Shown here: piece after piece, positions 31,955 to 59,444 of the stretch
Layout of the letters: every line of letters begins with the position of its first letter
How positions within the stretch are numbered: position 1 is the stretch's first letter
NCBI GenBank assembly: GCA_031291435.1
Contig: JARLJC010000108.1
Coordinates: 6,852 to 70,851, forward strand
Direction: 5' to 3'
From: Alphaproteobacteria bacterium
GTDB lineage: Bacteria > Pseudomonadota > Alphaproteobacteria > UBA9219
DNA: 64,000 nt
Program-made: the position numbers and the translations under genes
Notes under the pieces: model-generated
Databases searched by the model: none
Seen by the model: the letters and a program-made list of their open reading frames with translations, nothing else
What the model was told of the DNA's origin: nothing

Positions 31955-31968
31955 TTGATCTGGATCAT
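31955..31968. promoter_or_regulatory. FNR/FixK-type box upstream of ompW (one mismatch)
   Basis: TTGATctggATCAt, centred about 62 nt upstream of the ompW ATG. Confidence 0.5.
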
Positions 31969-32023
31969 CCCGCGCCGCGCGGCCGCTCCCTAGGGTGAAA
32001 AAAATAACTCAGGGAGAAAGATC

Positions 32024-32674
32024 ATGCGCGTTAACAAAGCAATTCTGGTGGCAGGCGTCATGGCGGTTGCATCCATCGCCCCCGTTCATGCCGATGAAGC
32101 CTATAAAGGCTTTCAGGCCGGCGATATCATGGTGCGCGGGCGCATGCTGGCGGTGATACCGGATGTCAGCAGCTCGGTCTCGGGTATCGGCGGCAGCGTC
32201 GATGCGTCGAACTCGCTGGTGCCGGAAGTCGATGCCAGTTATTTCTTCACGCCCAATTTCGCGGTCGAAGGCATCGCCGCCGTGACGCGCCACCATCTGC
32301 GCGACAAAGGGTCGAGCGCGGGCGATGTCGATCTCGGCCATGTCAGCCTGTTGCCGCCGACCCTCACCGGCCAATGGCACTTCATGCCCGATCAGGCTTT
32401 CAGCCCCTATGTCGGCGCGGGCGTGAATTACACGGTCTTCTTCGATGCCCAGACGGCGCCGGGCAGCATCGCGCACACGGTCAAATATCGCGACGGTTTC
32501 GGCGGCGCGGTTCAGGCCGGCTTCGACTATCATCTGGCGGGCAACTGGTACGCCAATGTCGACGTCAAGCATCTGTTTCTGTCGACCAAGGCCAAGATCA
32601 ATGGCGGCGCGGTCGAGAGCAACGTATCGCTCGACCCCACCATTGTCGGCGTTGGCATCGGTTACAAATTCTGA
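32024..32674 (+). CDS. ompW: OmpW-family outer membrane protein
   Basis: 216 aa. Signal peptide ...IAPVHA|DE, an 8-strand barrel pattern and the terminal GIGYKF. Confidence 0.88.
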   Translation: MRVNKAILVAGVMAVASIAPVHADEAYKGFQAGDIMVRGRMLAVIPDVSSSVSGIGGSVDASNSLVPEVDASYFFTPNFAVEGIAAVTRHHLRDKGSSAGDVDLGHVSLLPPTLTGQWHFMPDQAFSPYVGAGVNYTVFFDAQTAPGSIAHTVKYRDGFGGAVQAGFDYHLAGNWYANVDVKHLFLSTKAKINGGAVESNVSLDPTIVGVGIGYKF

Positions 32675-32706
32675 GGGATGAGGTTGCGGCGGTCTGGGTG
32701 AAAAAC

Positions 32707-34050
32707 CTAGGCCGCCCGTGACGCCAGCATCGGCGAACCGGGCGTGTAAGCATCGAACAGCGAACATATAACGCGTACCGCCATGCGATGCGGCGTGGTC
32801 AGGCATAACGCATAACCGTCGCGCGCGACGATGCCGCCTTTCTCGAAGGGCTTCATTTTTTCCAGCGTCGCTGCGAAAGTTTCGACCGGATAATCGAAGG
32901 CGCGGCATATCGCTTCGATATCGCAGGACAGGCTGCACATCAGCTGTCCGATGATGGCGCGGCGCACGCGGTCTTCGCGCGAAAGAAGAAAGCCGCGATG
33001 CACCGGCAGATCGCCCCCGGCGACAGCGGATTGATAGGCACGTTCGTCGCGTTCGTTCTGGAAATAGCCCGCTTCCGTCTGGCTGATCGACGAAGCGCCG
33101 AAACCGAGCAGCGTTCCCGCCTCTTCCATATAACCCTGGAACCCGCGATGCAGATGCCCGGCGCGCCAGGCCTGCGCCAGACTGTCGCCGTAACGCGCGA
33201 AATGGTCGATGCCGATGGCTTCATAGCCCCGGCTGACAAGGATGCCGCGCGCGGCCTGATCCATCGCCAGACGCTGGCCCATATCGGGGATGCCGTGCGG
33301 CTCAAGGGCTTTCTGATGTTTCTTAAGGGCGGGCACATGGGCATAGGCGAATAACGCGATGCGGTCAGGGGAAAGATCGGCGGCGCGCCGACAGGTATCG
33401 GTGAGGATCCCCACCGTCTGTCTGGGCAGGCCATAAAGAAGATCGAAATTGATGTGATGTATGCCCGCCGCGCGCAACTGGGCGCATAAAGCCGCGACCA
33501 TTTCATAAGGCTGCACACGACCGATGGCGGCCTGCACGCCGGGATCGAAATCCTGCACGCCGAGGCTGACGCGGGTGACGCCGCAGGCCGCCAGATTTGC
33601 GACCTGTTCGCGCGAAGCCAGGCGCGGGTCGAGTTCCATGGCGATTTCGCGGATGGCGGAGAAATCGAATTGCGCGCGCAAATGCTCGAACAGCCCGAGC
33701 ATATCGGATGCGGGCAGGGCATTGGGTGTGCCGCCGCCGAAATGCAGGCTGGACAAAGCGCGCCGTCCGGTAATCGCCGCGACAAGGGATATTTCGCGTT
33801 TCAGCGCCTCCATATAAGCGTGGATGCGTTGCGGGCGGTTGGTAATCAGGGTGTTGCAGCCGCAATAGAGGCATAGATGGCGGCAGAAAGGGATGTGGAT
33901 ATAGACGGAAACCGCCTGTCCCGCTGGGATTTCCTGCAGGGAGCGGCGGTAATCCGCGGCGCCTGCCTCGGCATGGAAAAAGGGCGCGGGCGGATAGCTG
34001 GTATAACGCGGCGCGGGCTTGCCGAGCCAGAGGGCGGTGGAGGCTTGCAT
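32707..34050 (-). CDS. hemN: Oxygen-independent coproporphyrinogen III oxidase (radical SAM)
   Basis: 447 aa. PRYTSYPPAPFF N-terminus, CxxxCxxC (CRHLCLYC) and HemN-length C-terminal domains. Confidence 0.9.
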   Translation of the reverse strand: MQASTALWLGKPAPRYTSYPPAPFFHAEAGAADYRRSLQEIPAGQAVSVYIHIPFCRHLCLYCGCNTLITNRPQRIHAYMEALKREISLVAAITGRRALSSLHFGGGTPNALPASDMLGLFEHLRAQFDFSAIREIAMELDPRLASREQVANLAACGVTRVSLGVQDFDPGVQAAIGRVQPYEMVAALCAQLRAAGIHHINFDLLYGLPRQTVGILTDTCRRAADLSPDRIALFAYAHVPALKKHQKALEPHGIPDMGQRLAMDQAARGILVSRGYEAIGIDHFARYGDSLAQAWRAGHLHRGFQGYMEEAGTLLGFGASSISQTEAGYFQNERDERAYQSAVAGGDLPVHRGFLLSREDRVRRAIIGQLMCSLSCDIEAICRAFDYPVETFAATLEKMKPFEKGGIVARDGYALCLTTPHRMAVRVICSLFDAYTPGSPMLASRAA

Positions 34051-34085
34051 GCTGCGGTCTTTACCAGCATCGACAGGATTTGCGT

Positions 34086-34099
34086 TTGAGCCAGATCAA
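34086..34099. promoter_or_regulatory. FNR/FixK-type box in the hemN / crp-fnr divergent region (one mismatch)
   Basis: TTGAGccagATCAA, about 42 nt upstream of the hemN ATG and about 47 nt upstream of the regulator ATG. Confidence 0.5.
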
Positions 34100-34139
34100 G
34101 TCTTAGGTTACATAAAGGTCAACCTGTGGCGGACCCGAT

Positions 34140-34901
34140 ATGGATTTGGACGTTTCCTCGATTGATGCGCTTGCCGCATTGCCCCTGTTTCAGGGGGTTG
34201 AACCTGCTTTGCTGCAGGGCTTGCTGGCGACCGCGCGTTTCGTCCGCCATGAGAAAGGCGCCGTTTTTCTGGCGCAGGATCAGCCGGTGACGCGCTTCTA
34301 TGTGGTCGTCGAAGGCTGGTGCGCAGCCGCCAAGGGTAATGCCGAAGGACAGGAAACCATCCTGCAGATTTTCCGGCGCGGCGATTTCCTGCCCGAACCC
34401 GACCGCGACGCCGGCGACGAACCCAGCCCGCTCAATCTGCTGGCGCTGACGCCCTGCGTGCTGCTGATGCTGCCGCCCAGCATCGTTCGCAACGCCCTTG
34501 ATCGCTCGCCCGCTTTCGCGGCCAATATGCTGGCGGCCGCGGTGCGGCGGTCGCAGGAATTGCGCGACCATATCGAGCAATTGACGCTGCGCAACGCCGA
34601 GCAGCGCATCGGGCGCTTTCTGCTTCAGGTGCGGTTCGGCGCCGATCAGGAAGGCAAGGATATCGTTCTGCCGTTCGACAAATCGCATATCGCGTCCTAT
34701 CTCGGCATCAAGCCGGAGACTTTGTCGCGCACCTTGCAGTTCTTCAAGGAAAACGGCTTCGTGGTCGAGCGCAACCACCTCATCATCCCCGACCGGCAGG
34801 CTTTGTGCGATTACTGCGATTCTACGACCATGAAAATCTGCCGCTTCGCCCATGGCGAAGATTGCGTGCATTCGTCCCATGGCGACGCCGCGACCCTTTA
34901 A
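34140..34901 (+). CDS. Crp/Fnr-family transcriptional regulator (no N-terminal Cys cluster; C-terminal Cys-rich tail)
   Basis: 253 aa with a cNMP-binding-like barrel. HTH: SHIASYLGIKPETLSRTLQFF. The C-terminal extension ALCDYCDSTTMKICRFAHGEDCVHSSHG carries 4 Cys. Confidence 0.85.
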   Translation: MDLDVSSIDALAALPLFQGVEPALLQGLLATARFVRHEKGAVFLAQDQPVTRFYVVVEGWCAAAKGNAEGQETILQIFRRGDFLPEPDRDAGDEPSPLNLLALTPCVLLMLPPSIVRNALDRSPAFAANMLAAAVRRSQELRDHIEQLTLRNAEQRIGRFLLQVRFGADQEGKDIVLPFDKSHIASYLGIKPETLSRTLQFFKENGFVVERNHLIIPDRQALCDYCDSTTMKICRFAHGEDCVHSSHGDAATL

Positions 34902-34924
34902 TTCGCACCGAGAATCGCCAGGGT

Positions 34925-34938
34925 TTGATCTAAATCAA
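34925..34938. promoter_or_regulatory. Perfect FNR/FixK box TTGAT-N4-ATCAA
   Basis: TTGATctaaATCAA lies 17 nt upstream of the first ATG (34955) and 62 nt upstream of the alternative TTG start (35000) of the first 2OG-oxygenase gene. Confidence 0.65.
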
Positions 34939-34954
34939 GGCGCGGCCGCCGCGA

Positions 34955-35626
34955 ATGGCGTTTGTAAGATGTCAGGAAAACGCATCTCACGGGGACGCCT
35001 TGCTCAATCTCGATGCCTTGAAAGCAGCGCCGGTCACGACCGAGCCCTTCCCTTACATGGCGGCGTCGAACGCCGTCGAGTCCGGAGCTTTACGCGCCAT
35101 CTCCGCCGATTTTCCCCCTATCGACAAACCGGGCGTCTTTCCGCTGTCGGAAATCGATTACGGCGGCGCATTCGCGCAATTGATTGAAGATGTGCAGGGG
35201 GCGGATCTGGAAGTACTGCTGGAAGAAAAATTCGGCATGTCTTTGTCGGACAAACCGCTGATGATCACCGTGCGCGGCATGTGCCAGAAAAAAGACGGGC
35301 GCATCCATACCGACTCGAAAGATAAAATTCTCACCTGCCTTCTCTATCTTAATGATGCTGGATGGAGCGCCGAAGGCGGGCGGCTGCGTCTGCTGCGCGA
35401 CGGGCGCGATCTTGACAGCACGATCGCCGAGATACCGCCCGACGGCGGCAATTTCGTCGCTTTCAAACGTACCGATCATTCGTGGCACGGCCATGCGCCG
35501 TTCGAAGGGCCGCGCCGCTATATCATGTTCAACTGGGTGCGGTCCGATCTGGCGCTCGCCAAAAATATCGGACGGCACAAACTTTCCGCGGCTTTCAAAC
35601 GCATGGGGATTTTCGATGGCTATTAA
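34955..35626 (+). CDS. 2OG-Fe(II) oxygenase superfamily protein
   Basis: 223 aa. The true start may be the TTG at 35000, after GGGGA. HxD (HTD in GRIHTDSKD) plus a distal His (HSWHGH), as expected for a jelly-roll oxygenase. Confidence 0.75.
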   Translation: MAFVRCQENASHGDALLNLDALKAAPVTTEPFPYMAASNAVESGALRAISADFPPIDKPGVFPLSEIDYGGAFAQLIEDVQGADLEVLLEEKFGMSLSDKPLMITVRGMCQKKDGRIHTDSKDKILTCLLYLNDAGWSAEGGRLRLLRDGRDLDSTIAEIPPDGGNFVAFKRTDHSWHGHAPFEGPRRYIMFNWVRSDLALAKNIGRHKLSAAFKRMGIFDGY

Positions 35627-36308
35627 TTTTGGGGCTATGAACGCGGCCACCGCGCGGCGGCAACCGCCGCTCTCGCCGACATCGGGACATTTTCTCGCCA
35701 GTCTTGGAAGGGCCGCGCATCAAACGGCGCCGTTCGATTACTGGCTGCTCGATGACGCGTTTCCGGAAGATGTGGTCGATAGGGTGGCCGATCTGCCGTT
35801 TCTGCCGCCGGAAAATCCGTTGTTCGAAGGGCGGCGCGAATGCAACAATTCGACGCGGGTTTATTTCTCGCCCGAGAATCAGGACAAATTCCCGGTCTGC
35901 CGCGATCTCGTTGAGACGTTCAGCAACCCGTCGATTCTCGCGGCGATCGAGCGCATGACACACGCCGATGTGTCGAAAGGGCAGCTGCGCATCGAATATT
36001 GCCAGGATGTCGACGGTTTCTGGCTGGAGCCGCATCTCGACATTTCCGTCAAGCTTTTCACGATGTTAGTCTATCTGTCCGACGATCCGAACCTGTTCGA
36101 CGCCGGCACCGATATTTATGATTCCACCCCCGAGCATCGACTGGTGGCGTCCGCCCCCTATGAAAAAAACAAGGGTTTGATATTCGTTCCCGGCACGAAT
36201 ACATGGCACGGTTTCACTAAACGTCCTATAAAGGGGCTGCGTAAATCCATCATCATCAATTACGTATCGCCGGAATGGCGCAATAAAGACGAATTGGCCT
36301 ATCGGTGA
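35616..36308 (+). CDS. 2OG-Fe(II) oxygenase superfamily protein (second, divergent copy)
   Basis: I prefer the ATG at 35616 (MAINFGAMNAAT...), an 11-nt overlap with the upstream gene. HxD (PHLD) and a distal His (NTWHGF). Confidence 0.7.
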   Translation: MAINFGAMNAATARRQPPLSPTSGHFLASLGRAAHQTAPFDYWLLDDAFPEDVVDRVADLPFLPPENPLFEGRRECNNSTRVYFSPENQDKFPVCRDLVETFSNPSILAAIERMTHADVSKGQLRIEYCQDVDGFWLEPHLDISVKLFTMLVYLSDDPNLFDAGTDIYDSTPEHRLVASAPYEKNKGLIFVPGTNTWHGFTKRPIKGLRKSIIINYVSPEWRNKDELAYR

Positions 36309-36325
36309 TGCGGGGAGTTTGCGTC

Positions 36326-36493
36326 ATGTCACGTTCTTCGCTGCGCCGGGAGATTACCGGCATTCTCGTTATCAAGATCGCTATCATCCTTCTGGCCGGC
36401 TTCACGATTTTCGGCGCGGCGCACCGGCTGCATGTCGATAACGCGTTGATGACCCGCCACCTGCTTGGCCCTTCTTCTGAACCCGCGAGGTAA
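36326..36493 (+). CDS. cydP: Small membrane protein upstream of cydA (CydP-like)
   Basis: ATG at 36326 follows GGGGAG. Product MSRSSLRREITGILVIKIAIILLAGFTIF..., with one TM. Position and sequence resemble the putative small subunit CydP as I recall it. Confidence 0.5.
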   Translation: MSRSSLRREITGILVIKIAIILLAGFTIFGAAHRLHVDNALMTRHLLGPSSEPAR

Positions 36494-36497
36494 CTTT

Positions 36498-38036
36498 ATG
36501 CACACGCTCGATGTCGTTTCCCTGTCCCGCCTGCAATTCGCGCTGACGGCGCTGTATCATTTTCTGTTCGTGCCGTTGACGCTCGGTATGTCGTTCCTGC
36601 TGGCGATCATGGAAAGCGTGTGGGTGATGACCGGCCGCACCATCTGGCGCGACATGGTCAAATTCTGGGGCACTTTGTTCGGCATTAATTTTGCGATGGG
36701 GGTGGCGACCGGCATCACGATGGAATTTCAGTTCGGCACCAACTGGGCCTATTACTCGCATTATGTCGGGGATATTTTCGGCGCGCCCCTCGCCATCGAA
36801 GGGCTGATGGCGTTTTTCCTCGAAGCGACTTTCGTCGGCCTGTTTTTCTTCGGCTGGGATAAAATGTCGCGGTTGCAGCATCTGGTCTGCACCTGGCTGC
36901 TGGCTCTCGGCGCCAATCTGTCGGCTTTGTGGATCCTGATCGCCAATGGCTGGATGCAAAATCCGGTCGGCGCGCATTTCAATGTCGATACCATGCGCAT
37001 GGAAGTTTCCAACTTCGGCGACGTGCTGTTCAACCCGGTGGCGCAGGCGAAATTCGTGCATACGGTCAGCGCCGGTTACGTCACCGGCTCGGTTTTCATC
37101 ATGGCGATCAGCGCGTGGTATCTGCTGAAGGGCCGCCATATCGAAATCGCCAAACGCTCGATGACGGTGGCGGCGTGCTTCGGCCTCGCCTCGGCCTTGT
37201 CGGTCGTGGTTCTCGGCGACGAGAGCGGCTATACCGCCAGCCAGAACCAGAAAATGAAAATCGCCGCGATCGAGGCGGTGTGGCACACGGAAGCGGCGCC
37301 CGCCGGATTGACCCTGTTCGGCTTTCCCGATCCTGCCAAAGGCGTCACGCATTTCGAAATCAAGCTGCCCTGGGTGCTGGGGCTGATTGCCACCCGTTCG
37401 GCGGATACCGCGGTGCCGGGCATCGCCGATCTCGTGGAACGCAACAAGCAGCGCGTGCGCAGCGGGATGATCGCCTATGAAGCGCTCGACGGTTTGCGGC
37501 GCGACCGCGGCGACGCGCGGCTGATGGGTCTTTTTAACGAACATCAGGGCGATCTTGGCTATGCGCTTCTGCTGAAACGCTATACCGACGACGTCGCGCA
37601 CGCCGACGACCGTATGATCGCGTCGGCGGCCAACGATACCGTTCCCGATGTTCCCACGCTGTTCTGGAGTTTCCGCGGCATGGCCGCGCTGGGCTTCTAT
37701 TTCATCGGGTTATTTGTTTGCGCTTTCTATTTCGCGGCGCGCCGTGAATTGCACAAGCGCAAGGGATTCCTCCGGCTGGTGGTGGCGACTTTGCCGCTGC
37801 CGTGGCTGGCGGCGGAGCTGGGCTGGGTGGTGGCCGAGATGGGACGCCAGCCCTGGACGATCGACGGCGTGCTGCCGACCTTCCTGTCGGCCTCGTCGAC
37901 CCCGGCCAGCAATGTGCTGCTGTCGCTGATCGGCTTCGTGCTGTTTTATTCGGCGCTTCTGGTGGTCGAATTGTTCCTGATGGTAAAATACGTCAAACTG
38001 GGGCCGCCTGCCGCGCCCGCAAAAGGGGAGGCCTGA
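36498..38036 (+). CDS. cydA: Cytochrome bd ubiquinol oxidase subunit I
   Basis: I prefer the ATG at 36498: MHTLDVVSLSRLQFALTALYHFLFVPLTLG is the canonical CydA N-terminus. 512 aa. Confidence 0.92.
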   Translation: MHTLDVVSLSRLQFALTALYHFLFVPLTLGMSFLLAIMESVWVMTGRTIWRDMVKFWGTLFGINFAMGVATGITMEFQFGTNWAYYSHYVGDIFGAPLAIEGLMAFFLEATFVGLFFFGWDKMSRLQHLVCTWLLALGANLSALWILIANGWMQNPVGAHFNVDTMRMEVSNFGDVLFNPVAQAKFVHTVSAGYVTGSVFIMAISAWYLLKGRHIEIAKRSMTVAACFGLASALSVVVLGDESGYTASQNQKMKIAAIEAVWHTEAAPAGLTLFGFPDPAKGVTHFEIKLPWVLGLIATRSADTAVPGIADLVERNKQRVRSGMIAYEALDGLRRDRGDARLMGLFNEHQGDLGYALLLKRYTDDVAHADDRMIASAANDTVPDVPTLFWSFRGMAALGFYFIGLFVCAFYFAARRELHKRKGFLRLVVATLPLPWLAAELGWVVAEMGRQPWTIDGVLPTFLSASSTPASNVLLSLIGFVLFYSALLVVELFLMVKYVKLGPPAAPAKGEA

Positions 38037-38039
38037 GCC

Positions 38040-39179
38040 ATGTTCGATTATGAAATTTTCCGTCTGATCTGGTGGGGGCTGCTCGGAATCCTCCTGATAG
38101 GGTTCGCGGTCATGGACGGCTTCGATTTCGGAGTCGGCGCTTTGATGCCTTTCCTCGGCAAAAACGACGAAGAACGCCGCATCATCATCAATACCGTCGG
38201 CCCCGTATGGGAAGGCAATCAGGTGTGGCTGATCCTCGGCGGCGGCGCGATCTTTGCCGCATGGCCTTATATCTATGCCGTGGCTTTCTCGGGCTTTTAT
38301 CTGGCGATGTTCCTCGTGCTGTGCACGCTCATCCTGCGCCCGGTTTCGTTCAAGTTCCGCAGCAAGATGCCGGGCAAAGGCTGGCGCAGTTTCTGGGACT
38401 GGTGCCTGTTCACGACGGGTGCGGTGGCGCCGGTAATTTTCGGCGTCGCGGTCGGCAATGCGCTGGAAGGGGTGCCTTTCACGCTCGATGACACCATGCG
38501 CATGACCTATACCGGCAATCTGTTCGGCCTCCTCAATCCGTTCGCGCTCCTGACGGGGATCATCAGCCTGTCGATGGTGCTGACGCAGGGGGCGGTCTGG
38601 CTGGGACTGAAAACCGAAGGCGATATTGAAAAGCGCGCGCGGGGGGTGGCGACTTTCTTCGGCCTCGCTACGCTCGCCCTGTTCGTGGTGGCGGGGTTGT
38701 GGGTCGATCTCGGCATCGACGGCTATCGCATCACCAGCGTTATCGATCCCAACGGACCTTCCAATCCGCTCTTGAAAACGGTGACGCGCGCGACGGGTGC
38801 CTGGTTCGACAATTACCGCAAATTGCCGGTCAGCATGCTGGCCCCGGCGCTGGCGATCATCGGTACGCTGATCGTCCTGCCGGCGGTTGCCGGGCGGCGT
38901 TACCTGCTGGCCTTTGTCGGCAATTCGCTGACCATCGCCGGTATCGTCTCTACCGCGGGCGTCGCCATGTTCCCGTTCCTGCTGCCTTCGTCGCTTAACC
39001 CCAACGCCAGCCTGACGGTGTGGGATGCGTCGTCGAGCCGCACGACGCTCATTATCATGACGGTGGTGGCCGCCGTGTTCGTTCCCATCATCCTGGCCTA
39101 TACCGGCTGGGTTTACAGCGTCCTGCGCGGCAAGGTCACCAAGGCCTATATCCGTGAGCAGGGCGGCAGCGTTTACTGA
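38040..39179 (+). CDS. cydB: Cytochrome bd ubiquinol oxidase subunit II
   Basis: 379 aa. [33 protein letters not shown] is the canonical CydB start. 3-nt gap after cydA. Confidence 0.92.
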
Positions 39180-39192
39180 GGAGGAAAGTCGC

Positions 39193-39321
39193 ATGTGGTA
39201 TTTCAGCTGGATTCTCGGTATCGGCCTTGCCTGCGCCTTTGCCATTCTCAACGCGCTGTGGTTCGAGCTCGACGCCGACAAAAGCGCCGACAAACTGGCC
39301 GATAAAAATCCGAAGATCTAA
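39193..39321 (+). CDS. cydX: Cytochrome bd small subunit CydX (below the ORF-track cutoff)
   Basis: GAGGAAAG precedes the ATG at 39193. The 42-aa product MWYFSWILGIGLACAFAILNALWFELDADKSADKLADKNPKI* has the MWYFxWILG CydX/YbgT motif. Confidence 0.8.
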   Translation: MWYFSWILGIGLACAFAILNALWFELDADKSADKLADKNPKI

Positions 39322-39408
39322 GCCGCCCTGTTTTGTTCTTGAGAAAAGAGCATCGGGCCGATAGATCTGAGCCCGCCCTTGCGGCGGGAATCGGATGGCG
39401 CGGAACAG

Positions 39409-40134
39409 ATGGCTCTTGTCAAAAAATTCGAAAGCGATTTTGGCGTCATCAGCGTGCTGCGTTCGTCTCATGACGGCGGCATGGCCTACTATCAGAATGG
39501 CTGTTTCCACAGCCAGTCCACGCGACAGGGCATCAGCGTCTGCGCCTATGTTCACGCCCTCCACGAAATGATCAGGCAGGCGCGGGCGCGGCGCGTGCTG
39601 ATTATCGGCTGCGGCGGCGGCACATTGGCGACCATGCTGCGGCGGCTGAATTGCAGGGTAACCGTTGTCGATATCAATCCCGTCTCCTTCATCGTCGCCC
39701 GCGCTTATTTCCGCCTGCCCGACGATGTGCGCTGCATCTGCCGCGACGGCATCGCCTATCTGCGCACCACCTGCAAAAAATACGATGCTGTGGTGATCGA
39801 TGTGTTCGGTTCCCACAATAATGTGCCGCCGATGTTTACCACCGAGGCTTTTTTTCGCGCGGTCGCCCGCGTGCTGTCGCCCTCCGGCCTGATGGCGATG
39901 AATGTCATCACCGCGAATGATCGCGACAAGCGCGCCGCGATTATCGCCCAGCGTGCCGAGGCGGCGGGCATGGGCATCGCGCTTTTCGACTGGCCGGGGC
40001 AGAAGGATCGCAACAGTCTGATCACCGGCAACGCGCCGCGCCGCCTGCGCCTGCCTTCGGGGCGCGAACCGGCCTGGATGCGTGAGGATATGCGCGGCCT
40101 TACCCGCCTCGGCCTCCGCAAGCGCCTGCCCTGA
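39409..40134 (+). CDS. Class I SAM-dependent methyltransferase / spermidine synthase-like protein
   Basis: I prefer the ATG at 39409. Motif I is VLIIGCGGGTLATML. VVDINP and a DAVVIDVF acidic loop follow. Confidence 0.6.
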   Translation: MALVKKFESDFGVISVLRSSHDGGMAYYQNGCFHSQSTRQGISVCAYVHALHEMIRQARARRVLIIGCGGGTLATMLRRLNCRVTVVDINPVSFIVARAYFRLPDDVRCICRDGIAYLRTTCKKYDAVVIDVFGSHNNVPPMFTTEAFFRAVARVLSPSGLMAMNVITANDRDKRAAIIAQRAEAAGMGIALFDWPGQKDRNSLITGNAPRRLRLPSGREPAWMREDMRGLTRLGLRKRLP

Positions 40135-41740: not shown

Positions 41741-44700
41741 ATGTCGCATCCTTTTTTGCCTGTCTGCCACCGTTCGCCCGGTCAAAGGCAAAAGATTCGC
41801 CCCGGTAGAACGGGCATAACTCTTGCGCTCGGCCTTATGCTGGGCGGTGCGGCGCATGCGGCGGCACCGGCATCGAACGCGTTGCCGACCGGCGGCCAGA
41901 TCGTTTCCGGCAGCGGCAGCATCAGCCAGACCGCCAGCAGTCTCACCGTCAATCAGAGCAGCGACAAGCTGGTCGCCAACTGGAGCAGCTTCGATATCGG
42001 CAGCAACGCCAGCGTCAATTTCGTGCAGCCCAGCGCCACGAGCGTCGCGCTCAACCGTATTTCGGGCGGCGCTTCGCAGATTTTCGGGCATCTGACCGCC
42101 AACGGCAAAGTCATCCTCGTCAACCCCAACGGCATCATTTTCGGTGCGGGTTCGCGGGTCGATGTCGGCGGGCTGGTGGCCTCGTCGCTTGATATGTCGG
42201 ATGCCGACTTTGCCGCCGGGAACAATCATTTCGCGGGCTCGGGCACCGGCCCCATCGTCAATAACGGCACTATCACGGTTCCGGCGGGCAGCGTCGTTGC
42301 GATGATCGCGCCGCAGGTCAGCAATAACGGCACTATCAATGCTTCGGGCGGCGGCGTGGCGCTGGCCGCGGGGCAGGATGTAACGCTCGATTTCACCGGC
42401 GATAATCTCGTCAGCGTGACCGTCAGCAGGGCGGCTTTCGACGCTCTGGTGGAAAATAAAGGCATCATCGTTGCCGATGGCGGCGTCGCGATCATGAGCG
42501 CGCAAAGCGCCAACGCTTTGCTTGAAACCGTCGTCAATAATGATGGCATCGTTCAGGCTAACAGCCTGTCGGACAAAAATGGCCGCATCATCCTCGATGG
42601 CGGCGACAGCGGCACCGTTGCGGTAAGCGGCACTTTGCAGGCCGACGGCACGCAGGCGGGCCAGAGCGGCGGCACCATTACCGCCACCGGCAATCAGGTC
42701 AATGTCGCGGCGACCGTGGTGATCGACGCGTCGGGCAATGCGGGTGGCGGCACTATCAAGATCGGCGGCGGCGTGCGCGGACAGGATGCCAGCATCGCCA
42801 ACGCCAAGGACGTCACCGTCGCGGCGGGCGCGCAAATCAAGGCCAACGCCACCGATAACGGCAATGGCGGCACCGTCACGGTATGGTCAGACGGCAAGAC
42901 CGATGTTTCGGGCGCCATGCAGGCCAAAGGCGGCCCCAACGGCGGCGATGGCGGTTATGTCGAAACTTCGGGCGCAAGCCTCACGCTGGAAAAATATCTG
43001 TTCGTCAATACGGGCGCCGCCAAAGGCAGCGGCGGCCTGTGGCTGCTCGACCCCACCACCGAAACCTATCAGACCATCGGCGGTACCGAAGCATCGGCCA
43101 TCGAGACCGCCCTTGCCAGCGGCGAAGTCAACGATGTCACCAGCGGCGGTATTCATATCACCTCCAGCATCGTCAGCGGCGCGGGCAATAAGCTGACCTT
43201 CCAGTCGGCCAATCAGATTCTGGTCGATGCGGTGACGGTATCGACCGGCGGCGGCGCTCTTTATTTTGGCGGCGAGGCGGGCGGCACCTCCTATGCTACC
43301 GGCGCGGCGTCGGGCCAGGCGGGTGTGGTGCTGAACGGATCGACGCTGAACGCGGGCGCGGGCCTGCTCACCATTCGTGGGCAGGGTTATACGCCGGGGC
43401 TGCTTACCGGCACCGGCAGTCTTTCCGCCAATGAATCCGCCGGCATCGGCGTCGATTTTCAGGGCACGGTTTCGCTGACCGGCGGCACTATCAACGTGAC
43501 CGGCGTCGGCGGTACCGGGCAGGCAGTTGAAAACACCACGGCCACCGGGCCGCTGGTCACCGGCACCGGCTATTTCTGGAGCACCAACACCCATGTCGGC
43601 GGCAACAACGGCGCCAGCGCCTCGGCCGGCGATGGTGCGGTCGGCGTGGATGTCGAATCAGGTGCCAGCGTAACGGTTACAGGATCGACCGCGGCCACCA
43701 TCAATGCGACCGGCGGTGATGGCGGGGATGCCAGCATCGATAATCTTGGCGGCAGCGGATCCTGGGGCGGCAATGGCGCGATCGGTTACTATCAGCAGGG
43801 CGCCGTGGCTTTCAATACGCCGACGGCGACCATTAGTGCTTCGCGCGGCTATAGCGGGTATGGCAGCAGCCCCGGATACTATGTCGACGAAGCTGTCGGC
43901 CCCCAATGCAACGGCGACTGCAATTACGATGCTTATGATTCCGGTAACGGGCTCTATGATGCCTATGGCGGCGGCACCGAAGAATATGGGACCACGCCGC
44001 AAATATCCTATAACGACGGTAGCGGCAGCGACGCCAGCTACGCTCTCTATATCAACGGCAATCTCAGCAATACCAACGGCGTCGGCAGTATTCTGAATAT
44101 CGAAGGCAATTATGACGCCTATCAGAACAGCGGCGCTTTGACCGCTTCGCATGTGATGATGGAGGGTCTCGACAGCGAGAATCCCGTTTTCAATTTCAGC
44201 CAGGCCAACAACGCCATCGACATGCTGGCGTCACAGAGCGTCGGCACCCTCTATTTCAACGATAAGGATAGCGGCACGCAATCGCTCCATATCGGCACCG
44301 TCAGCGGCGTCGCGGGCGTCAATACCGCCAGCGAGACCAACATTCAGGTTCAGGGCGGCAACGGCGCCAGCGCCTCGCTCATCGTCGATAATGGCGCGGG
44401 CGTCGCCGCCGGAACCTATGGCACCCTGACCGCCAACACCATTCTGTTCAACAGCGGCGACAGCAGCATCAGCGGCACCTATTTCGCCGTCCGTCCCTAC
44501 AGCACCAGCCAGAATTTCGTGATGGCCGCCGCCGATCCCAACGCGGGCGGCGATCTTTATATTCCCGTCGGCAATATCTCGAAATTCAACAGTTCAAGCC
44601 TGACTTTCGGCGATTCCGCCGACACCGGCAACGTCACCGTCAGCAGCAACGCCGATTTCGGCAGCACCAACATGGCCTTCCTGACCGGCAGCGGCGGCAT

Positions 44701-46900
44701 CACTTTGTCCGGCAATATCACCACCACCGGCAATATGGCTTTGCGAAGCGGCGGCACCGTCAACGCCACCGGCGCGCTGACCGTCAATACGCTCGGCCTC
44801 GACGGCGCGGGCGGCGTCTTCAATCTCGACAATTCGGCGAACGTCGTCAGCAATCTTCTGACCACCGATTCGGTCGGCACGGTCGATTTCCTCGACAACC
44901 ATGCTCTCAATATTTCCGATACCTATCTGAACGAAGGCGCCAACGCCTGGAACAATCCGCCGGACGATAATGTCGGCTTTGCCGGCGTACATGCCAGCAA
45001 CCGCGTTTATATCAATGCGGCAGGCAATGTTACCATAGCTTCGGGTGATACGGTAACGGCGCAGGGTTCTTATACCGGTTCGGCCACCTACAGCAGCCCC
45101 GCCAACAAGAACGTGCAGGAAGCGGCCTCGGTGGTGCTGGTCTCGGGCGGCATCTTCACCAATAACGAGGGCAGCGACGCGATTTCGACCGCGGCCAGCA
45201 ACCGTTTCCTGGTTTACGCTTCGGCGCCCAAGAACAATACCAGCGGCAGCGGTTCGGGCGAGAACATGTCGTACGATTTCAAGATGTACGCCTTCGATTT
45301 CTACAACAGCGGCCACACCGGTAATGGCAATAACGGTTTCGATTACGACAATGGCGGTTTCGGCCGCAGCCTTCCCGCCAGCACCGTCGGCAGCGGCTTC
45401 ATCTATTCCAGCCAGCCGACTTTGACCGTCACGCCCAAGGCGCAGAGCGGCACCTACGGCAACAGCCCAAGCCTCAGCACAGTTTACAACACCGGTTATC
45501 AGCTGGGCGGTTTCGTCGACGGCGACAGCCAGAGCAACGATACCGGCACGCCCGCCTTCACCACGACGGCGACCAGCGCTTCGGCGGTCGGCACTTACGA
45601 TATTTCCTACACGGCGGCTACAGCGGGCGACGCCACTCACGGTCTCGTGCCCAAATATAACGGCGTCGTGATGGGCTACAGCGTCGTCAACAGCACGCGC
45701 GCCAATGGCTATACCGTCGGCCAACGTCCGATCACCGTCACCGCCACCGGCGGCCAGAGCATGGTTTATGGCGACAGCGTTCCGACGCTTGCTTACACCG
45801 TAAGCAGCGGCACACTCGTCAACACCGGCACCAGCGGCAATGGCAGCCTGTCGGGCAACCTCGCCACCAATGCCACGTCCGCGTCGAATGTCGGCAACGG
45901 CTACAACATTACGCAAGGCACGCTCGCCAATGCCAATTACCTTATCACGTATAACGGCACCACTTTCAGCATCACCAAGCGTCCGGTCACCATCACCGCC
46001 ACCGCCGATCAAAGCAAAATCGTCGGCACCGCCGATCCTGTCTTCACTTATTCGCCGTCTTATACCGGCAACGGCGGCAAACCCGCACTCGTCAACGGCA
46101 ATACATTCACGGGCCTTCTGACCCGCGACAGCGGCGAGCTGGTCGGCAGCTACAACATCAATCAGGGCAGTCTCGCTATTTCCGACGGGAACAGCGGCAA
46201 TAATTATCAAATCACCTATGTGACGAATCCGTTCAAGGTCAATCCGATTATCTCCGTTCCTGCCACAGACCCGCAAACCGGCGTCAACGGCACCGGATCG
46301 ACCGTGGCTGCGGATACGGCGGCGAACAATGTTGGCCCCGGCACCGGTTCCGGCACCATCACCACCAACGCCAACACACAACTGGTCTCCGATAACCAGA
46401 CGCATGCGCCCGCAACCGGCGGCATGACTCTGACATCGGGCGGCGGCACCGGCCCCGTTTCCGTCACGCAGTCTGGCCCCACCGTGACCTTCACCTTCCC
46501 CGCTGGCGCTACCGTGCCGCCGGTGCCGCCTGCCGCGCAATCGGGCCTGCCGCTGTTCGTCGCCGGCAGCGGGCAGGGCACCACTTACAGCCTGACGCAA
46601 AAAGGTTCGGCGCTCAGCGCCACCACGGTCGGCGCCGCGACAACGCCGCAACCCACCAACACCGTGTTCGCCAGCACACCCGCGCAGGCAAGCCTCACCC
46701 AATCCGACGGTTCCAGCCTGACGATTTCGGTGGGCATTTCCTCGACCGGGGTTTTGGTGGTAGAAGTTCCCGCCGGGTCGATATCCACCCTTGATCCTCA
46801 AACGACGATGCTGCTCGCCTGGACGGTTGCCAGCCAGAATTTCGGCGCTAATGTAGGAAGCATCACCTCCGTCGTGATTACCCCGGCTAAAGAATCCTGA
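41741..46900 (+). CDS. Two-partner-secretion exoprotein (TpsA, filamentous haemagglutinin family) with MBG-type repeats
   Basis: 1719 aa. Extended signal peptide. The TPS domain reads LPTGGQIVSGSGSI...VNQSS.KLVANWSSFDIG...VNFVQPS...ALNRI...LTANGKVILVNPNGIIFG. A beta-helix Gly/Asn/Thr-rich body follows. Three MBG-like units (...YGDSVPTLAYTV...NYLITYNGTTFSITKRPVTITAT...). Confidence 0.9.
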   Translation: MSHPFLPVCHRSPGQRQKIRPGRTGITLALGLMLGGAAHAAAPASNALPTGGQIVSGSGSISQTASSLTVNQSSDKLVANWSSFDIGSNASVNFVQPSATSVALNRISGGASQIFGHLTANGKVILVNPNGIIFGAGSRVDVGGLVASSLDMSDADFAAGNNHFAGSGTGPIVNNGTITVPAGSVVAMIAPQVSNNGTINASGGGVALAAGQDVTLDFTGDNLVSVTVSRAAFDALVENKGIIVADGGVAIMSAQSANALLETVVNNDGIVQANSLSDKNGRIILDGGDSGTVAVSGTLQADGTQAGQSGGTITATGNQVNVAATVVIDASGNAGGGTIKIGGGVRGQDASIANAKDVTVAAGAQIKANATDNGNGGTVTVWSDGKTDVSGAMQAKGGPNGGDGGYVETSGASLTLEKYLFVNTGAAKGSGGLWLLDPTTETYQTIGGTEASAIETALASGEVNDVTSGGIHITSSIVSGAGNKLTFQSANQILVDAVTVSTGGGALYFGGEAGGTSYATGAASGQAGVVLNGSTLNAGAGLLTIRGQGYTPGLLTGTGSLSANESAGIGVDFQGTVSLTGGTINVTGVGGTGQAVENTTATGPLVTGTGYFWSTNTHVGGNNGASASAGDGAVGVDVESGASVTVTGSTAATINATGGDGGDASIDNLGGSGSWGGNGAIGYYQQGAVAFNTPTATISASRGYSGYGSSPGYYVDEAVGPQCNGDCNYDAYDSGNGLYDAYGGGTEEYGTTPQISYNDGSGSDASYALYINGNLSNTNGVGSILNIEGNYDAYQNSGALTASHVMMEGLDSENPVFNFSQANNAIDMLASQSVGTLYFNDKDSGTQSLHIGTVSGVAGVNTASETNIQVQGGNGASASLIVDNGAGVAAGTYGTLTANTILFNSGDSSISGTYFAVRPYSTSQNFVMAAADPNAGGDLYIPVGNISKFNSSSLTFGDSADTGNVTVSSNADFGSTNMAFLTGSGGITLSGNITTTGNMALRSGGTVNATGALTVNTLGLDGAGGVFNLDNSANVVSNLLTTDSVGTVDFLDNHALNISDTYLNEGANAWNNPPDDNVGFAGVHASNRVYINAAGNVTIASGDTVTAQGSYTGSATYSSPANKNVQEAASVVLVSGGIFTNNEGSDAISTAASNRFLVYASAPKNNTSGSGSGENMSYDFKMYAFDFYNSGHTGNGNNGFDYDNGGFGRSLPASTVGSGFIYSSQPTLTVTPKAQSGTYGNSPSLSTVYNTGYQLGGFVDGDSQSNDTGTPAFTTTATSASAVGTYDISYTAATAGDATHGLVPKYNGVVMGYSVVNSTRANGYTVGQRPITVTATGGQSMVYGDSVPTLAYTVSSGTLVNTGTSGNGSLSGNLATNATSASNVGNGYNITQGTLANANYLITYNGTTFSITKRPVTITATADQSKIVGTADPVFTYSPSYTGNGGKPALVNGNTFTGLLTRDSGELVGSYNINQGSLAISDGNSGNNYQITYVTNPFKVNPIISVPATDPQTGVNGTGSTVAADTAANNVGPGTGSGTITTNANTQLVSDNQTHAPATGGMTLTSGGGTGPVSVTQSGPTVTFTFPAGATVPPVPPAAQSGLPLFVAGSGQGTTYSLTQKGSALSATTVGAATTPQPTNTVFASTPAQASLTQSDGSSLTISVGISSTGVLVVEVPAGSISTLDPQTTMLLAWTVASQNFGANVGSITSVVITPAKES

Positions 46901-56535: not shown

Positions 56536-57108
56536 TCAAGGGGCTGCTTTCCATACCAGCATCAGCAGGGACAGGCCATAAAATACGAGATTAATGGAGA
56601 TCATACAGCCGAGATACAAAACATCGAGCGTGGGGAAGCCGATCCACAGGATAGCGGCCAGAGCGAGCGTGACGATGCCGGAAAAAAGCATCCAGCCCCA
56701 GCCGCGCGCGGGATGGAACTGGATGGCGAGCATCAGTTCCATGAAACCCTCGGCCGTCATGAAGATCGCCAGCAGCGTCACGAACGCCAGCAGAATGGGC
56801 AAGGGCTGCCACAGCATGATGACACCCATGACGATCGAGAGGCAGGCCGACGCAAGCGACCACCAATGCATCTTCGCCCGCAGCGTAAGGATAAGCTGAA
56901 ACGCGCCCGTCAGCAGCAAGGCGGCGCCGACAATCAGTTCGACATTGAGGGCGGTGGCGGCGGGAAAGGCGCCCGCCAGAATGCCCGCAATAACGAAGAG
57001 GGTGCCCTGCAAGATATATTTGCCCCTATGGGCTTGCAATTCTTGGCGGATGCGCGCGCCCAGAGCTTCGAAACCCTCTGTCGTCATTCCGGTTTTTGTG
57101 AACGGCAT
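56536..57108 (-). CDS. hdeD: HdeD-family (DUF308) membrane protein
   Basis: 190 aa with six TM helices and the repeated GxxxxxxG pattern typical of HdeD (LQGTLFVIAGILAGAFP...). Confidence 0.7.
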   Translation of the reverse strand: MPFTKTGMTTEGFEALGARIRQELQAHRGKYILQGTLFVIAGILAGAFPAATALNVELIVGAALLLTGAFQLILTLRAKMHWWSLASACLSIVMGVIMLWQPLPILLAFVTLLAIFMTAEGFMELMLAIQFHPARGWGWMLFSGIVTLALAAILWIGFPTLDVLYLGCMISINLVFYGLSLLMLVWKAAP

Positions 57109-57165: not shown

Positions 57166-57179
57166 TTGATCCTAGTCAA
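57166..57179. promoter_or_regulatory. FNR/FixK-like box (one mismatch) between hdeD and the VIT1 gene
   Basis: TTGATcctaGTCAA, centred about 64 nt upstream of the hdeD ATG. Confidence 0.35.
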
Positions 57180-58838: not shown

Positions 58839-59372
58839 TCACGCCGCCATATGAGCCTCGTTCAGCGTATCGTATAGATGCGGCAATAAATCGTGGCCGC
58901 TGTAATGCGTCAGGTCTTTCGGCAGGACAGCGGTCACGCAATGCTGAACGGCGGCGGGCAATTGCTCCCTTAACTCGCCGATCATCTTGGCCGGAGCCAC
59001 CAGCACAAGCCTGTCGAAAAGTTTTTCCTCGCGGGCCCGTGCCAGCTTGACGGCAATCGCCTTGGTAAAATGCCGTTTGAGTTCTTCCCTGATGTCGCCA
59101 TGCGGCTCGTAGCCTTGATGGGCCGGGCTGTTGGCGTTCGCTGAGGTATGCCCCAACTGATGATCGTTGATGGATTCCGCGCGCAGCGCGCCATTCGGCA
59201 CCGGCGCCAGCTCATACGCCCATTTCTCGTCATAAAGGCCTTGCCTGGTGGCGTTCCCTAACGGGACTATTTTGGCGGCTTTGCGGCATTCATAGACCTG
59301 CGCCTGCTTACCGTCGGCGACGACGACCCATATCGTTACAGGTTGCGGGGATTCTGTGGTGCGTTCATGCAT
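58839..59372 (-). CDS. Host-attachment-protein family protein
   Basis: 177 aa. TIWVVVADGKQAQVYE ... HFTKAIAVKLARAREEKLFDRLVLVAPAKMIGELR matches the family pattern as I recall it. Confidence 0.65.
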   Translation of the reverse strand: MHERTTESPQPVTIWVVVADGKQAQVYECRKAAKIVPLGNATRQGLYDEKWAYELAPVPNGALRAESINDHQLGHTSANANSPAHQGYEPHGDIREELKRHFTKAIAVKLARAREEKLFDRLVLVAPAKMIGELREQLPAAVQHCVTAVLPKDLTHYSGHDLLPHLYDTLNEAHMAA

Positions 59373-59430: not shown

Positions 59431-59444
59431 TTGACCAAGATCAA
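59431..59444. promoter_or_regulatory. FNR/FixK-type box upstream of the host-attachment-family gene (one mismatch)
   Basis: TTGACcaagATCAA, centred about 65 nt upstream of the ATG at 59372. Confidence 0.5.

Follow-up and report, generated by a model that had tools for sequence, protein, structure and literature searches.

In Alphaproteobacteria, class II promoters of the FNR/FixK/FnrL type, such as those of fixNOQP/ccoNOQP and hemN, combine a TTGAT-N4-ATCAA box with a regulator carrying an E--SR recognition helix, and their targets include hemN, ompW and genes for high-affinity oxidases. A Crp/Fnr-family protein is also involved in the cydABX operons of Escherichia coli and Azotobacter, where FNR and CydR are repressors. 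In this study, we examined an alphaproteobacterial locus that shares box, helix and targets with the former systems and the genes cydA, cydB and cydX with the latter. It differs from the former in that two oxygenase genes stand between the box and the oxidase genes, and in that the regulator encoded nearby has four invariant C-terminal cysteines instead of an N-terminal cysteine cluster. In contrast to the latter operons, the box occupies a predicted activating position some 1.4 kb 5' of cydP, before other genes, and cydP itself is present.

The two oxygenase genes, here named oxyA and oxyB, are paralogues on the plus strand of the window, i.e., the whole 64-kb stretch of DNA that was analysed. 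OxyA (35000..35626) reached the gathering score of the 2OG-Fe(II) oxygenase family PF13640 (E = 3.4e-12, 47.6 bits, cut-off 27), and the divergent OxyB (35616..36308; 27% identity to OxyA, E = 9e-7) stayed below it (E = 0.01, 17.2 bits). The open frame of oxyA extends back to ATG 34955, a start that was rejected because it lies only 17 nt past the box and homologues begin (MLNL/LLNY...) at the position of TTG 35000. This TTG, preceded by GGGGA, is most likely the start codon, as judged from the alignment. For oxyB, the alternative start ATG 35616 gives an overlap of 11 nt with oxyA.

Downstream follow, all on the plus strand, cydP for a small membrane protein (36326..36493; NF045611, 33.7 bits, cut-off 29.6), cydA for cytochrome bd subunit I (36498..38036; PF01654, E = 3e-170), cydB for subunit II (38040..39179; TIGR00203, 470.6 bits, cut-off 117) and cydX for the small subunit (39193..39321; TIGR02106, 65.9 bits, cut-off 31.6), with CydP, CydB and CydX all above curated cut-offs. 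The oxyB stop codon and the cydP ATG are 17 nt apart, with GGGGAG 8 nt 5' of the latter, and the following gaps measure 4 nt (cydP-cydA), 3 nt (cydA-cydB) and 13 nt (cydB-cydX). This confirms the layout given by an earlier, sequence-only reading, namely overlapping tandem oxygenase genes that end 17 nt before cydP and are followed by cydABX at distances of 3 to 13 nt. A pattern scan of the plus strand found no terminator-like site in the gaps from oxyA to cydX, every match lying within coding sequence. With tight gaps and no terminator found in them, the six-gene low-oxygen operon proposed in that reading is plausible, and oxyA-oxyB-cydPABX is likely to be co-transcribed from the box promoter; analogous fusions occur in the genomes or loci G037, G006 and L051 (see below).

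The perfect FNR/FixK box TTGATCTAAATCAA lies at positions 34925..34938, with its centre 68.5 nt 5' of TTG 35000. A pattern scan verified it as the sole perfect match to TTGAT-N4-ATCAA in the 64-kb window, as the sequence-only reading had stated for the match itself. Shuffled windows contained 0.13 perfect boxes on average and at least one in 11 of 100 shuffles, so that the box, judged within the window alone, is not significant. Its support comes from the excess over the whole genome (9 perfect boxes observed against 0.8 expected from base composition) and from conservation at homologous loci. Since the box recurs upstream of oxygenase homologues at a fixed distance, it is very probably a functional FNR/FixK site for these genes. 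In the window and at 3 of 16 relatives' loci, a perfect box precedes the oxyA start by 63 to 69 nt, and this spacing, seen at the four closest loci, is compatible with centring at -41.5 and a short leader. The best -10-like hexamer, TAAGAT at 34965-34970, would shift the centre of the box from -41.5 to near -45, and the hexamer at the canonical distance from the box, TTTGTA, is poor. A consensus promoter scan of 33900-39700 returned no sigma-70-like site, which is expected for an activator-dependent promoter yet gives no positive support either.

Furthermore, we analyzed whether the box and the gene neighbourhood are conserved. The OxyB family comprises 2398 database proteins, with 324 homologous stretches in species-representative genomes; the wider comparison covered the best 80 of these 324, of which 79 were assessable for the box. 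A perfect box occurred within 250 nt upstream at 14 of the 79 loci (about 0.5 expected) and a box with at most one mismatch at 24 (about 1.4 expected), based on a background of 0.007 and 0.018 per 310 nt, respectively. At 11 of the 24 boxed loci, it was located at -62 to -72. Sorted by gene order, the box was present at 18 of 30 loci with oxyA before oxyB, at none of 22 with the reverse order (mostly Azospirillum) and at 6 of 27 with a solo oxyB; at three further loci with the order hemN, oxyA, oxyB, it lies upstream of hemN. With oxyB lacking an adjacent oxyA at 27 of 80 loci and a box with at most one mismatch missing at 55 of 79, neither pairing nor FNR control is universal.

The linkage to cyd proved to be rare. 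The fusion of oxyAB to cyd turned up once among 18 relatives' loci and once among the 80 loci of the wider set, in both cases in G037, which has the identical oxyA-oxyB-cydPABX layout and a perfect box. Given this rarity and the recurrence of the box upstream of oxygenase homologues, the comparative data assign the box to the oxygenase genes and not to cyd. Besides cyd, the oxygenase unit abuts genes of the cbb3 oxidase, hemN or ompW. In the closest relative, the sister genome G006, one box stands between divergent hemN and fnr genes and a second one, matching that of the window, precedes oxyA, oxyB, an open reading frame and ccoNOQP with gaps of 12 and 0 nt. No other box with at most one mismatch was found there before ccoO, and the matching box heads a predicted transcript that includes ccoNOQP. 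In locus L051, hemN overlaps the end of oxyB. Conversely, oxyAB is present in genomes in which no cydA was found (e.g., G004, G011, G012, G029 and G033), and cydPABX orthologues lacking oxyAB had no box with at most one mismatch 5' of cydP (6 of 6 relatives' loci). The sequence-only reading had considered that the enzymes could modify a component of the oxidase. For a function directed at the bd oxidase in particular, these comparisons offer no support; a cyd-specific role of OxyA and OxyB appears unlikely.

Since cydPABX stands alone and without a box in six relatives, cyd is able to use a separate promoter, which in the window might be situated within oxyB. The box might then drive oxyA and oxyB only, with cydPABX transcribed mainly from a promoter in the 3' part of oxyB and the adjacency reflecting a recent rearrangement of no regulatory meaning. 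The varied genes upstream of cydP at these unboxed loci, the restriction of the oxyAB-cyd fusion to two genomes and the dissimilar oxyB-cydP junction sequences of G000 and G037 would all fit. However, the 17-nt gap with its Shine-Dalgarno sequence and without a terminator, the negative sigma-70 scan of the region and the equally tight fusions of oxyAB to ccoN (G006) and hemN (L051), which suggest that read-through is used, argue against it, and we consider this arrangement rather unlikely, if still a serious competitor.

We favor, with somewhat better than even confidence for the whole chain of steps, a portable oxygenase unit whose promoter extends into cyd. An FNR/FixK-type activator, either the adjacent Crp/Fnr protein or a FixK-like paralogue encoded on contig C166, would bind 34925-34938 at the head of a class II-type promoter whose leader is short, at some 20 to 30 nt. 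When oxygen is scarce, this promoter would turn on oxyA and oxyB, and in the source genome the transcript would most likely run on into cydP-cydA-cydB-cydX. The bd oxidase would thereby receive its low-oxygen control from the oxygenase promoter. The unit itself would belong to the alphaproteobacterial low-oxygen regulon and would have been fused, depending on the lineage, to bd, cbb3 or hemN genes. For the enzymes, a compensatory logic is most likely, in which more enzyme sustains the oxygen-dependent hydroxylation of some substrate at low oxygen and hydroxylase output is kept in step with the high-affinity oxidases. The sequence-only reading had called it counter-intuitive that oxygen-consuming hydroxylases are placed under an anaerobic-type activator. 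Their co-location with the box and the oxidase genes holds, but the paradox shrinks in view of hemF of Pseudomonas aeruginosa, an oxygen-consuming enzyme of another family and of known function that is induced at low oxygen by the FNR-type activator Anr.

The properties of the two proteins are in line with active enzymes. The intact HxD...H triads noted in the sequence-only reading were borne out in 60 sequences each: in OxyA (numbered from TTG), H103 and H163 are invariant and D105 is present in at least 90%, and in OxyB (numbered from ATG 35637), H133, D135 and H191 are all invariant. A putative 2OG-binding arginine (R172 and R202, respectively) is likewise invariant or nearly so. AlphaFold2 models (pLDDT 92.5 for OxyA and 91.2 for OxyB) showed the double-stranded beta-helix fold, with a Foldseek probability of 1.00 against many 2OG oxygenases. 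For both proteins, the best matches were the nucleoside antibiotic 2OG oxygenases PolD (9blq) and PasI (9ei6/9ei7), with TM scores of about 0.7 (0.66-0.76) and a similar size of about 210 to 235 amino acids. Sequence searches, too, retrieved no PDB sequences other than these (E = 6e-9 for OxyA and 0.013 for the OxyB profile). OxyA and OxyB are best explained as soluble 2OG/Fe(II) oxygenases that are capable of catalysis and have a prolyl-hydroxylase-like fold of the PolD/PasI kind. They differ from PolD and PasI in that identity is only 15 to 24%, no biosynthetic gene cluster was found around oxyAB and control by low oxygen is predicted.

Next in the Foldseek ranking were Tpa1, OGFOD1, the Pseudomonas prolyl hydroxylase PPHD (4iw3/4j25) and PHD2, all of which have this fold and an HxD...H triad and fall within the Pfam clan family of OxyA (PF13640). 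A likeness to prolyl-hydroxylase-type enzymes, as the sequence-only reading had proposed, is thus found for both predicted structures. For the protein prolyl 4-hydroxylase class it amounts to a resemblance of fold (TM 0.5-0.65, identity 10-18%), the small-molecule enzymes PolD and PasI being closer, and in a further difference oxyA and oxyB paralogues usually lie side by side. It appears doubtful that OxyA and OxyB are a bacterial counterpart of the hypoxia prolyl hydroxylases, i.e., a pair induced by micro-oxia whose oxygen-limited reaction modifies some protein or cofactor required for respiration at low oxygen, although this would explain the repeated welding to bd, cbb3 and hemN operons behind one FNR/FixK box.

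Slightly less probable still is that both enzymes act on the high-affinity oxidases or a factor shared by them, such as a subunit, an assembly factor or haem and its precursors, the linkage then reflecting a common pathway. Within 8 kb of oxyB, cco was found at 7, hemN at 12 and cydPABX at 1 of the 80 loci, compared to about 0.3 expected by our estimate for any single-copy gene; the arrangements vary between lineages, and each of the 11 relatives in which the identity of OxyB reaches 44% or more also has a long-type cydA or ccoN. However, G004, G011 and G012, which carry an oxyAB pair of about 40% identity, yielded no cydA and no ccoN, about 60 of the 80 loci have none of these neighbours, and bd oxidase is made in organisms without oxyAB, such as E. 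coli. Moreover, cco, hemN and cyd are all classic FNR/FixK targets, so that shared regulation accounts for the clustering without a shared pathway. Least probable is a function as oxygen sensors that hydroxylate a regulator or translation factor according to oxygen tension, as HIF prolyl hydroxylases do: the fold resembles PHD2, the EF-Tu-binding Pseudomonas enzyme and Tpa1/OGFOD1, and the predicted low-oxygen induction parallels that of PHD2/3 by HIF, but the closest structures are small-molecule enzymes (TM about 0.7 versus 0.5-0.65), identity to prolyl hydroxylases is 10 to 18%, and no candidate target gene is conserved beside the oxyA-oxyB pair, the downstream genes being heterogeneous.

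Neither the FNR box nor the bd oxidase genes are unusual in themselves. As far as we searched, however, no description exists of a widespread unit that comprises one or two PolD/prolyl-hydroxylase-like 2OG oxygenases with predicted FNR/FixK control and that in several lineages is built into high-affinity oxidase or hemN operons. Literature searches outside subscription journals found nothing on 2OG-Fe oxygenases in FixK/Fnr regulons or with terminal oxidases and, for CydP, nothing on an oxygenase-cyd unit. From the comparisons, oxyAB emerges as a general component of the low-oxygen regulon that has so far escaped study. Should its products modify a protein or cofactor used in respiration at low oxygen, or serve as oxygen sensors, bacterial oxygen biology would gain a new branch; if they merely sustain an oxygen-dependent housekeeping step, the unit would still reliably mark the micro-oxic regulon, as a marker that annotation has missed. 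The locus would also present a case of a terminal oxidase operon that gained oxygen control through fusion behind the promoter of another gene.

Upstream of oxyA lies a local low-oxygen gene cluster. It includes ompW for an outer membrane protein (32024..32674, plus strand; PF03922), preceded by the one-mismatch box TTGATCTGGATCAT (31955..31968) with its centre 62.5 nt 5' of the start, and hemN for oxygen-independent coproporphyrinogen III oxidase (32707..34050, minus strand; TIGR00538, 415.8 bits, cut-off 325). Another one-mismatch box, TTGAGCCAGATCAA (34086..34099), is located between hemN and the divergent crp/fnr gene (34140..34901, plus strand), and G006 has a one-mismatch box at the matching position. 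The encoded regulator has an FNR-type PETLSR recognition helix that is invariant among all 30 family members compared; its C-terminal cysteines are C223, C226, C234 and C242, and its top NCBIfam match, FtrB, is far under the cut-off (87 versus 211 bits). With PEALSR in the C166 paralogue, the genome encodes two candidate E--SR-helix regulators. The window contains six boxes with at most one mismatch, and four of them, namely those of ompW, oxyA, a DUF308 gene and a Host_attach gene, sit 62.5 to 68.5 nt 5' of a start codon. Elsewhere in the genome, boxes adjoin a cytochrome c gene and the genes of a FixJ-like regulator, a CBS protein and two further Crp/Fnr paralogues. At the far end of the locus, a SAM-methyltransferase-like gene (39397..40134, plus strand) begins 75 nt 3' of cydX and is possibly a further member of the unit. 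In locus L021, a homologue with 55% identity lies between oxyAB and ccoN, and ompW was also found near oxyAB in L021 and L051.

The region around the perfect FNR/FixK box (TTGAT-N4-ATCAA) comprises ompW (32024 to 32674, forward strand), hemN (32707 to 34050, reverse strand) and a gene of the Crp/Fnr family (34140 to 34901, forward strand), followed by the palindrome TTGATCTAAATCAA itself at positions 34925 to 34938. Next come two paralogous genes for 2OG-Fe(II) oxygenases, here named oxyA (probable start codon TTG at 35000; PF13640, 47.6 bits against a cut-off of 27) and oxyB (possible start ATG at 35616; sub-threshold PF13640 match of 17.2 bits), and the bd oxidase genes cydP (36326 to 36493), cydA (36498 to 38036; PF01654, E = 3e-170), cydB (38040 to 39179) and cydX (39193 to 39321), of which cydP, cydB and cydX passed their NCBIfam cut-offs. 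This confirms the run of box, oxygenase pair and cydP-cydABX described in the sequence-only reading; its gaps of 17, 4, 3 and 13 nt from oxyB through cydX were re-read and are correct, and the overlap of oxyA and oxyB holds if ATG 35616 is the start of oxyB. A terminator scan of the gaps was empty, as had been claimed for the stretch before cydA, and a scan of positions 33900 to 39700 for the sigma-70 consensus gave no site.

The position of the box relative to oxyA depends on the start codon. The longest open frame begins at ATG 34955, only 17 nt 3' of the box, so that a box-dependent transcription start would fall within the gene. The N termini of homologues (MLNL.., LLNY..) align at TTG 35000, which is preceded by GGGGA and lies 68.5 nt downstream of the box center. 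The equivalent spacing is 66, 63, and 69 nt in the three nearest loci with a perfect box of their own. These spacings are compatible with a leader of 20 to 30 nt behind a box near -41.5; the -10 region downstream of the box is unconvincing. The box could be bound by either of two candidate regulators. The protein encoded next to it has an FNR-type PETLSR helix without the N-terminal Cys cluster of FNR, and its best named match is FtrB, far below cut-off. Its family is small, with 89 database proteins that all come from uncultured Alphaproteobacteria, and in it the helix and a C-terminal cysteine motif (C223-x2-C226-x7-C234-x7-C242; 30 of 30 aligned members) are invariant; this motif brings to mind the Fe-S site at the C terminus of Bacillus Fnr. 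The other candidate is a FixK-like paralogue on contig C166 of the same genome (G000), whose helix is EALSR and whose gene is preceded by two perfect boxes.

On the window alone, one perfect box (0.13 expected; at least one in 11 of 100 shuffles) is not beyond chance, but in context it is. The whole genome holds nine perfect boxes versus 0.8 expected, and these adjoin a FixJ-like regulator, a CBS protein, further Crp/Fnr genes and a cytochrome c gene. Furthermore, four of the six window boxes with at most one mismatch lie 62.5 to 68.5 nt before a start codon. Besides the one at oxyA, these are one-mismatch boxes 62.5 nt before ompW (within 31955 to 34099), at 57166 to 57179, 64.5 nt before a DUF308 gene (56536 to 57108, reverse strand), and at 59431 to 59444, 65.5 nt before a Host_attach/baeRF gene (58839 to 59372, reverse strand), the last two matching the spacing at oxyA and ompW. 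The divergent hemN and Crp/Fnr genes have another one-mismatch box between them, at distances of 42.5 and 47.5 nt to the two start codons, a spacing at which the leader would be almost nil; the sister genome (G006) has a one-mismatch box at the same position.

The strongest evidence for the box comes from comparative counts, in which kinship among the loci overstates their independence. Genomic stretches that encode an OxyB relative numbered 324; of the best 80, 79 were assessable (L041, at a contig end, was left out), and the 250 nt before the first oxygenase gene contained a box in 14 of 79 (perfect) or 24 of 79 (at most one mismatch), against a background of 0.007 and 0.018 per 310 nt, respectively. 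By gene order, 18 of 30 loci with oxyA before oxyB were boxed, compared with none of 22 in the reverse order (mostly Azospirillum) and 6 of 27 with oxyB alone. Boxed loci stem from Rhizomicrobium, Acidocella, Stellaceae, Kiloniellaceae and several other lineages, and in three additional loci the box stands at the head of hemN-oxyA-oxyB. One boxed locus, with oxyA before oxyB and a one-mismatch box, is from the cultured Acidocella aminolytica DSM 11237 (L097). By their length and gene layout, the contigs of L038, L039, L040, L045, L049, and L054 are apparently those of L013, L016, L015, L017, L018, and L019; the two locus sets thus overlap and are not independent. Loci of genus g12 (L015, L018, L019, L030) have no FNR box upstream of oxyA and share a conserved motif, approximately CTGCGCTGTTwTGTCATACTG, 50 to 70 nt before the gene; their oxyAB pair has YceI-cytochrome b561-YceI and Tad pilus genes as neighbors.

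Across genomes, sequence comparison indicates that the box accompanies the oxygenase genes, not cyd. The two oxygenase genes adjoin in 17 of 18 relatives' loci and in 53 of the 80 wider loci, the other 27 having oxyB without adjoining oxyA. The proposed linkage of the pair to cyd was found, as cydPABX directly 3', only in this genome and one relative (G037) over both sets, and in six relatives whose cydPABX is separate from the pair, the stretch upstream of cydP, where the genes vary, showed no box with at most one mismatch. A dedication of the oxygenases to the bd oxidase is thus unsupported. In the closest relative, G006, the same block of hemN, box, Crp/Fnr gene, box, oxyA and oxyB continues into a small Cys-rich open reading frame and then ccoNOQP-ccoG; the gaps measure 12 and 0 nt, and no additional box occurs. 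In G006, ccoNOQP thus occupies exactly the place that cydPABX has in G000, and its own cydPABX lies on another short contig; G000 (99% complete, 373 contigs) yielded no ccoN, ccoO, ccoP, or ccoG. The small frame (L013, 6689 to 6936; about 82 amino acids, hydrophobic) could be a relict of, or related to, the DsbD_2 gene at the same place in L020 and L021.

Elsewhere, the oxygenase unit follows ccoNOQP-GHI (Rhizomicrobium), precedes DsbD_2-ccoN (genus g6) or lies before, after or overlapping hemN (other lineages). Within 8 kb, cco genes occur in 7, hemN in 12 and cydPABX in 1 of the 80 loci. Neighbor clustering over these loci and Pfam scans found no third gene conserved beside the pair; clustered neighbors were lineage specific only (GreA, CarB, Lrp, a dehydrogenase and others), and the genes 3' of the pair are heterogeneous. 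A linkage to ubiTUV was not general among the loci sampled: G000 has its U32 peptidase pairs on other contigs, and an SCP2 gene follows oxyB in one locus (L084). Since cyd, cco, and hemN are all typical targets of FNR/FixK, the most economical interpretation is a common regulon, with a tendency of its genes to be fused into joint transcripts. This makes a box-driven transcript of all six genes from oxyA to cydX likely in the window, and we would favor it with some reserve. The earlier proposal of such an operon as plausible is therefore upheld and is strengthened by the analogous fusions in other genomes. Metatranscriptomes from the same study (three runs) contained almost none of the sampled words.

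A role of OxyAB in heme d synthesis was rejected because some genomes that carry the pair gave no cydA match and other organisms make bd oxidase without it. The two enzymes are 27% identical; OxyA retains H103, D105, and H163, and the H133-x-D135...H191 triad of OxyB is invariant across 60 sequences (L055 and L056 were excluded from alignments A2/A3 for an in-frame or terminal stop). AF2 models were confident (pLDDT of 92.5 for OxyA and 91.2 for OxyB). The suggested likeness to prolyl hydroxylases holds for the fold, with Tpa1/OGFOD1, the Pseudomonas prolyl hydroxylase that binds EF-Tu, and PHD2 as the next structural matches (TM of 0.5 to 0.65), but not for the nearest relatives. The closest solved structures to both enzymes (TM of about 0.7), and the only PDB matches by sequence, are PolD and PasI, small-molecule 2OG oxygenases that act on phosphorylated nucleoside sugars. 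A literature search on 9BLQ, 9EI6, and PolD/PasI found nothing relevant, and database names of the family are "2OG-Fe(II) oxygenase" or "hypothetical." One complex prediction for OxyA and OxyB with both alignments scored 0.00 and 0.00, which is uninformative either way. The lasting interest lies in a widespread, unstudied oxygenase unit that is predicted to be induced at low oxygen.

Two further homologues deserve mention. Neither the HxD motif nor the distal His survives (PSSDL, ALKG) in an OxyB homologue of G008 (L028, 6004 to 6579; no adjoining oxyA), which is probably inactive. G000 itself has a second oxyA-like gene (contig C158, 14946 to 15545; 46% identical) with no oxyB match adjoining. 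Downstream of cydX, a GC-rich hairpin without a T-tract precedes a methyltransferase-like gene (Methyltransf_25/spermine-synthase-like; 39397 to 40134), which begins 75 nt 3' of cydX and has a homologue (55% identical) between oxyAB and DsbD_2-ccoN in L021 (G033). Farther downstream, positions 41741 to 46900 encode a 1,719-amino-acid protein of the two-partner-secretion exoprotein type, with a TPS secretion domain and MBG repeats.
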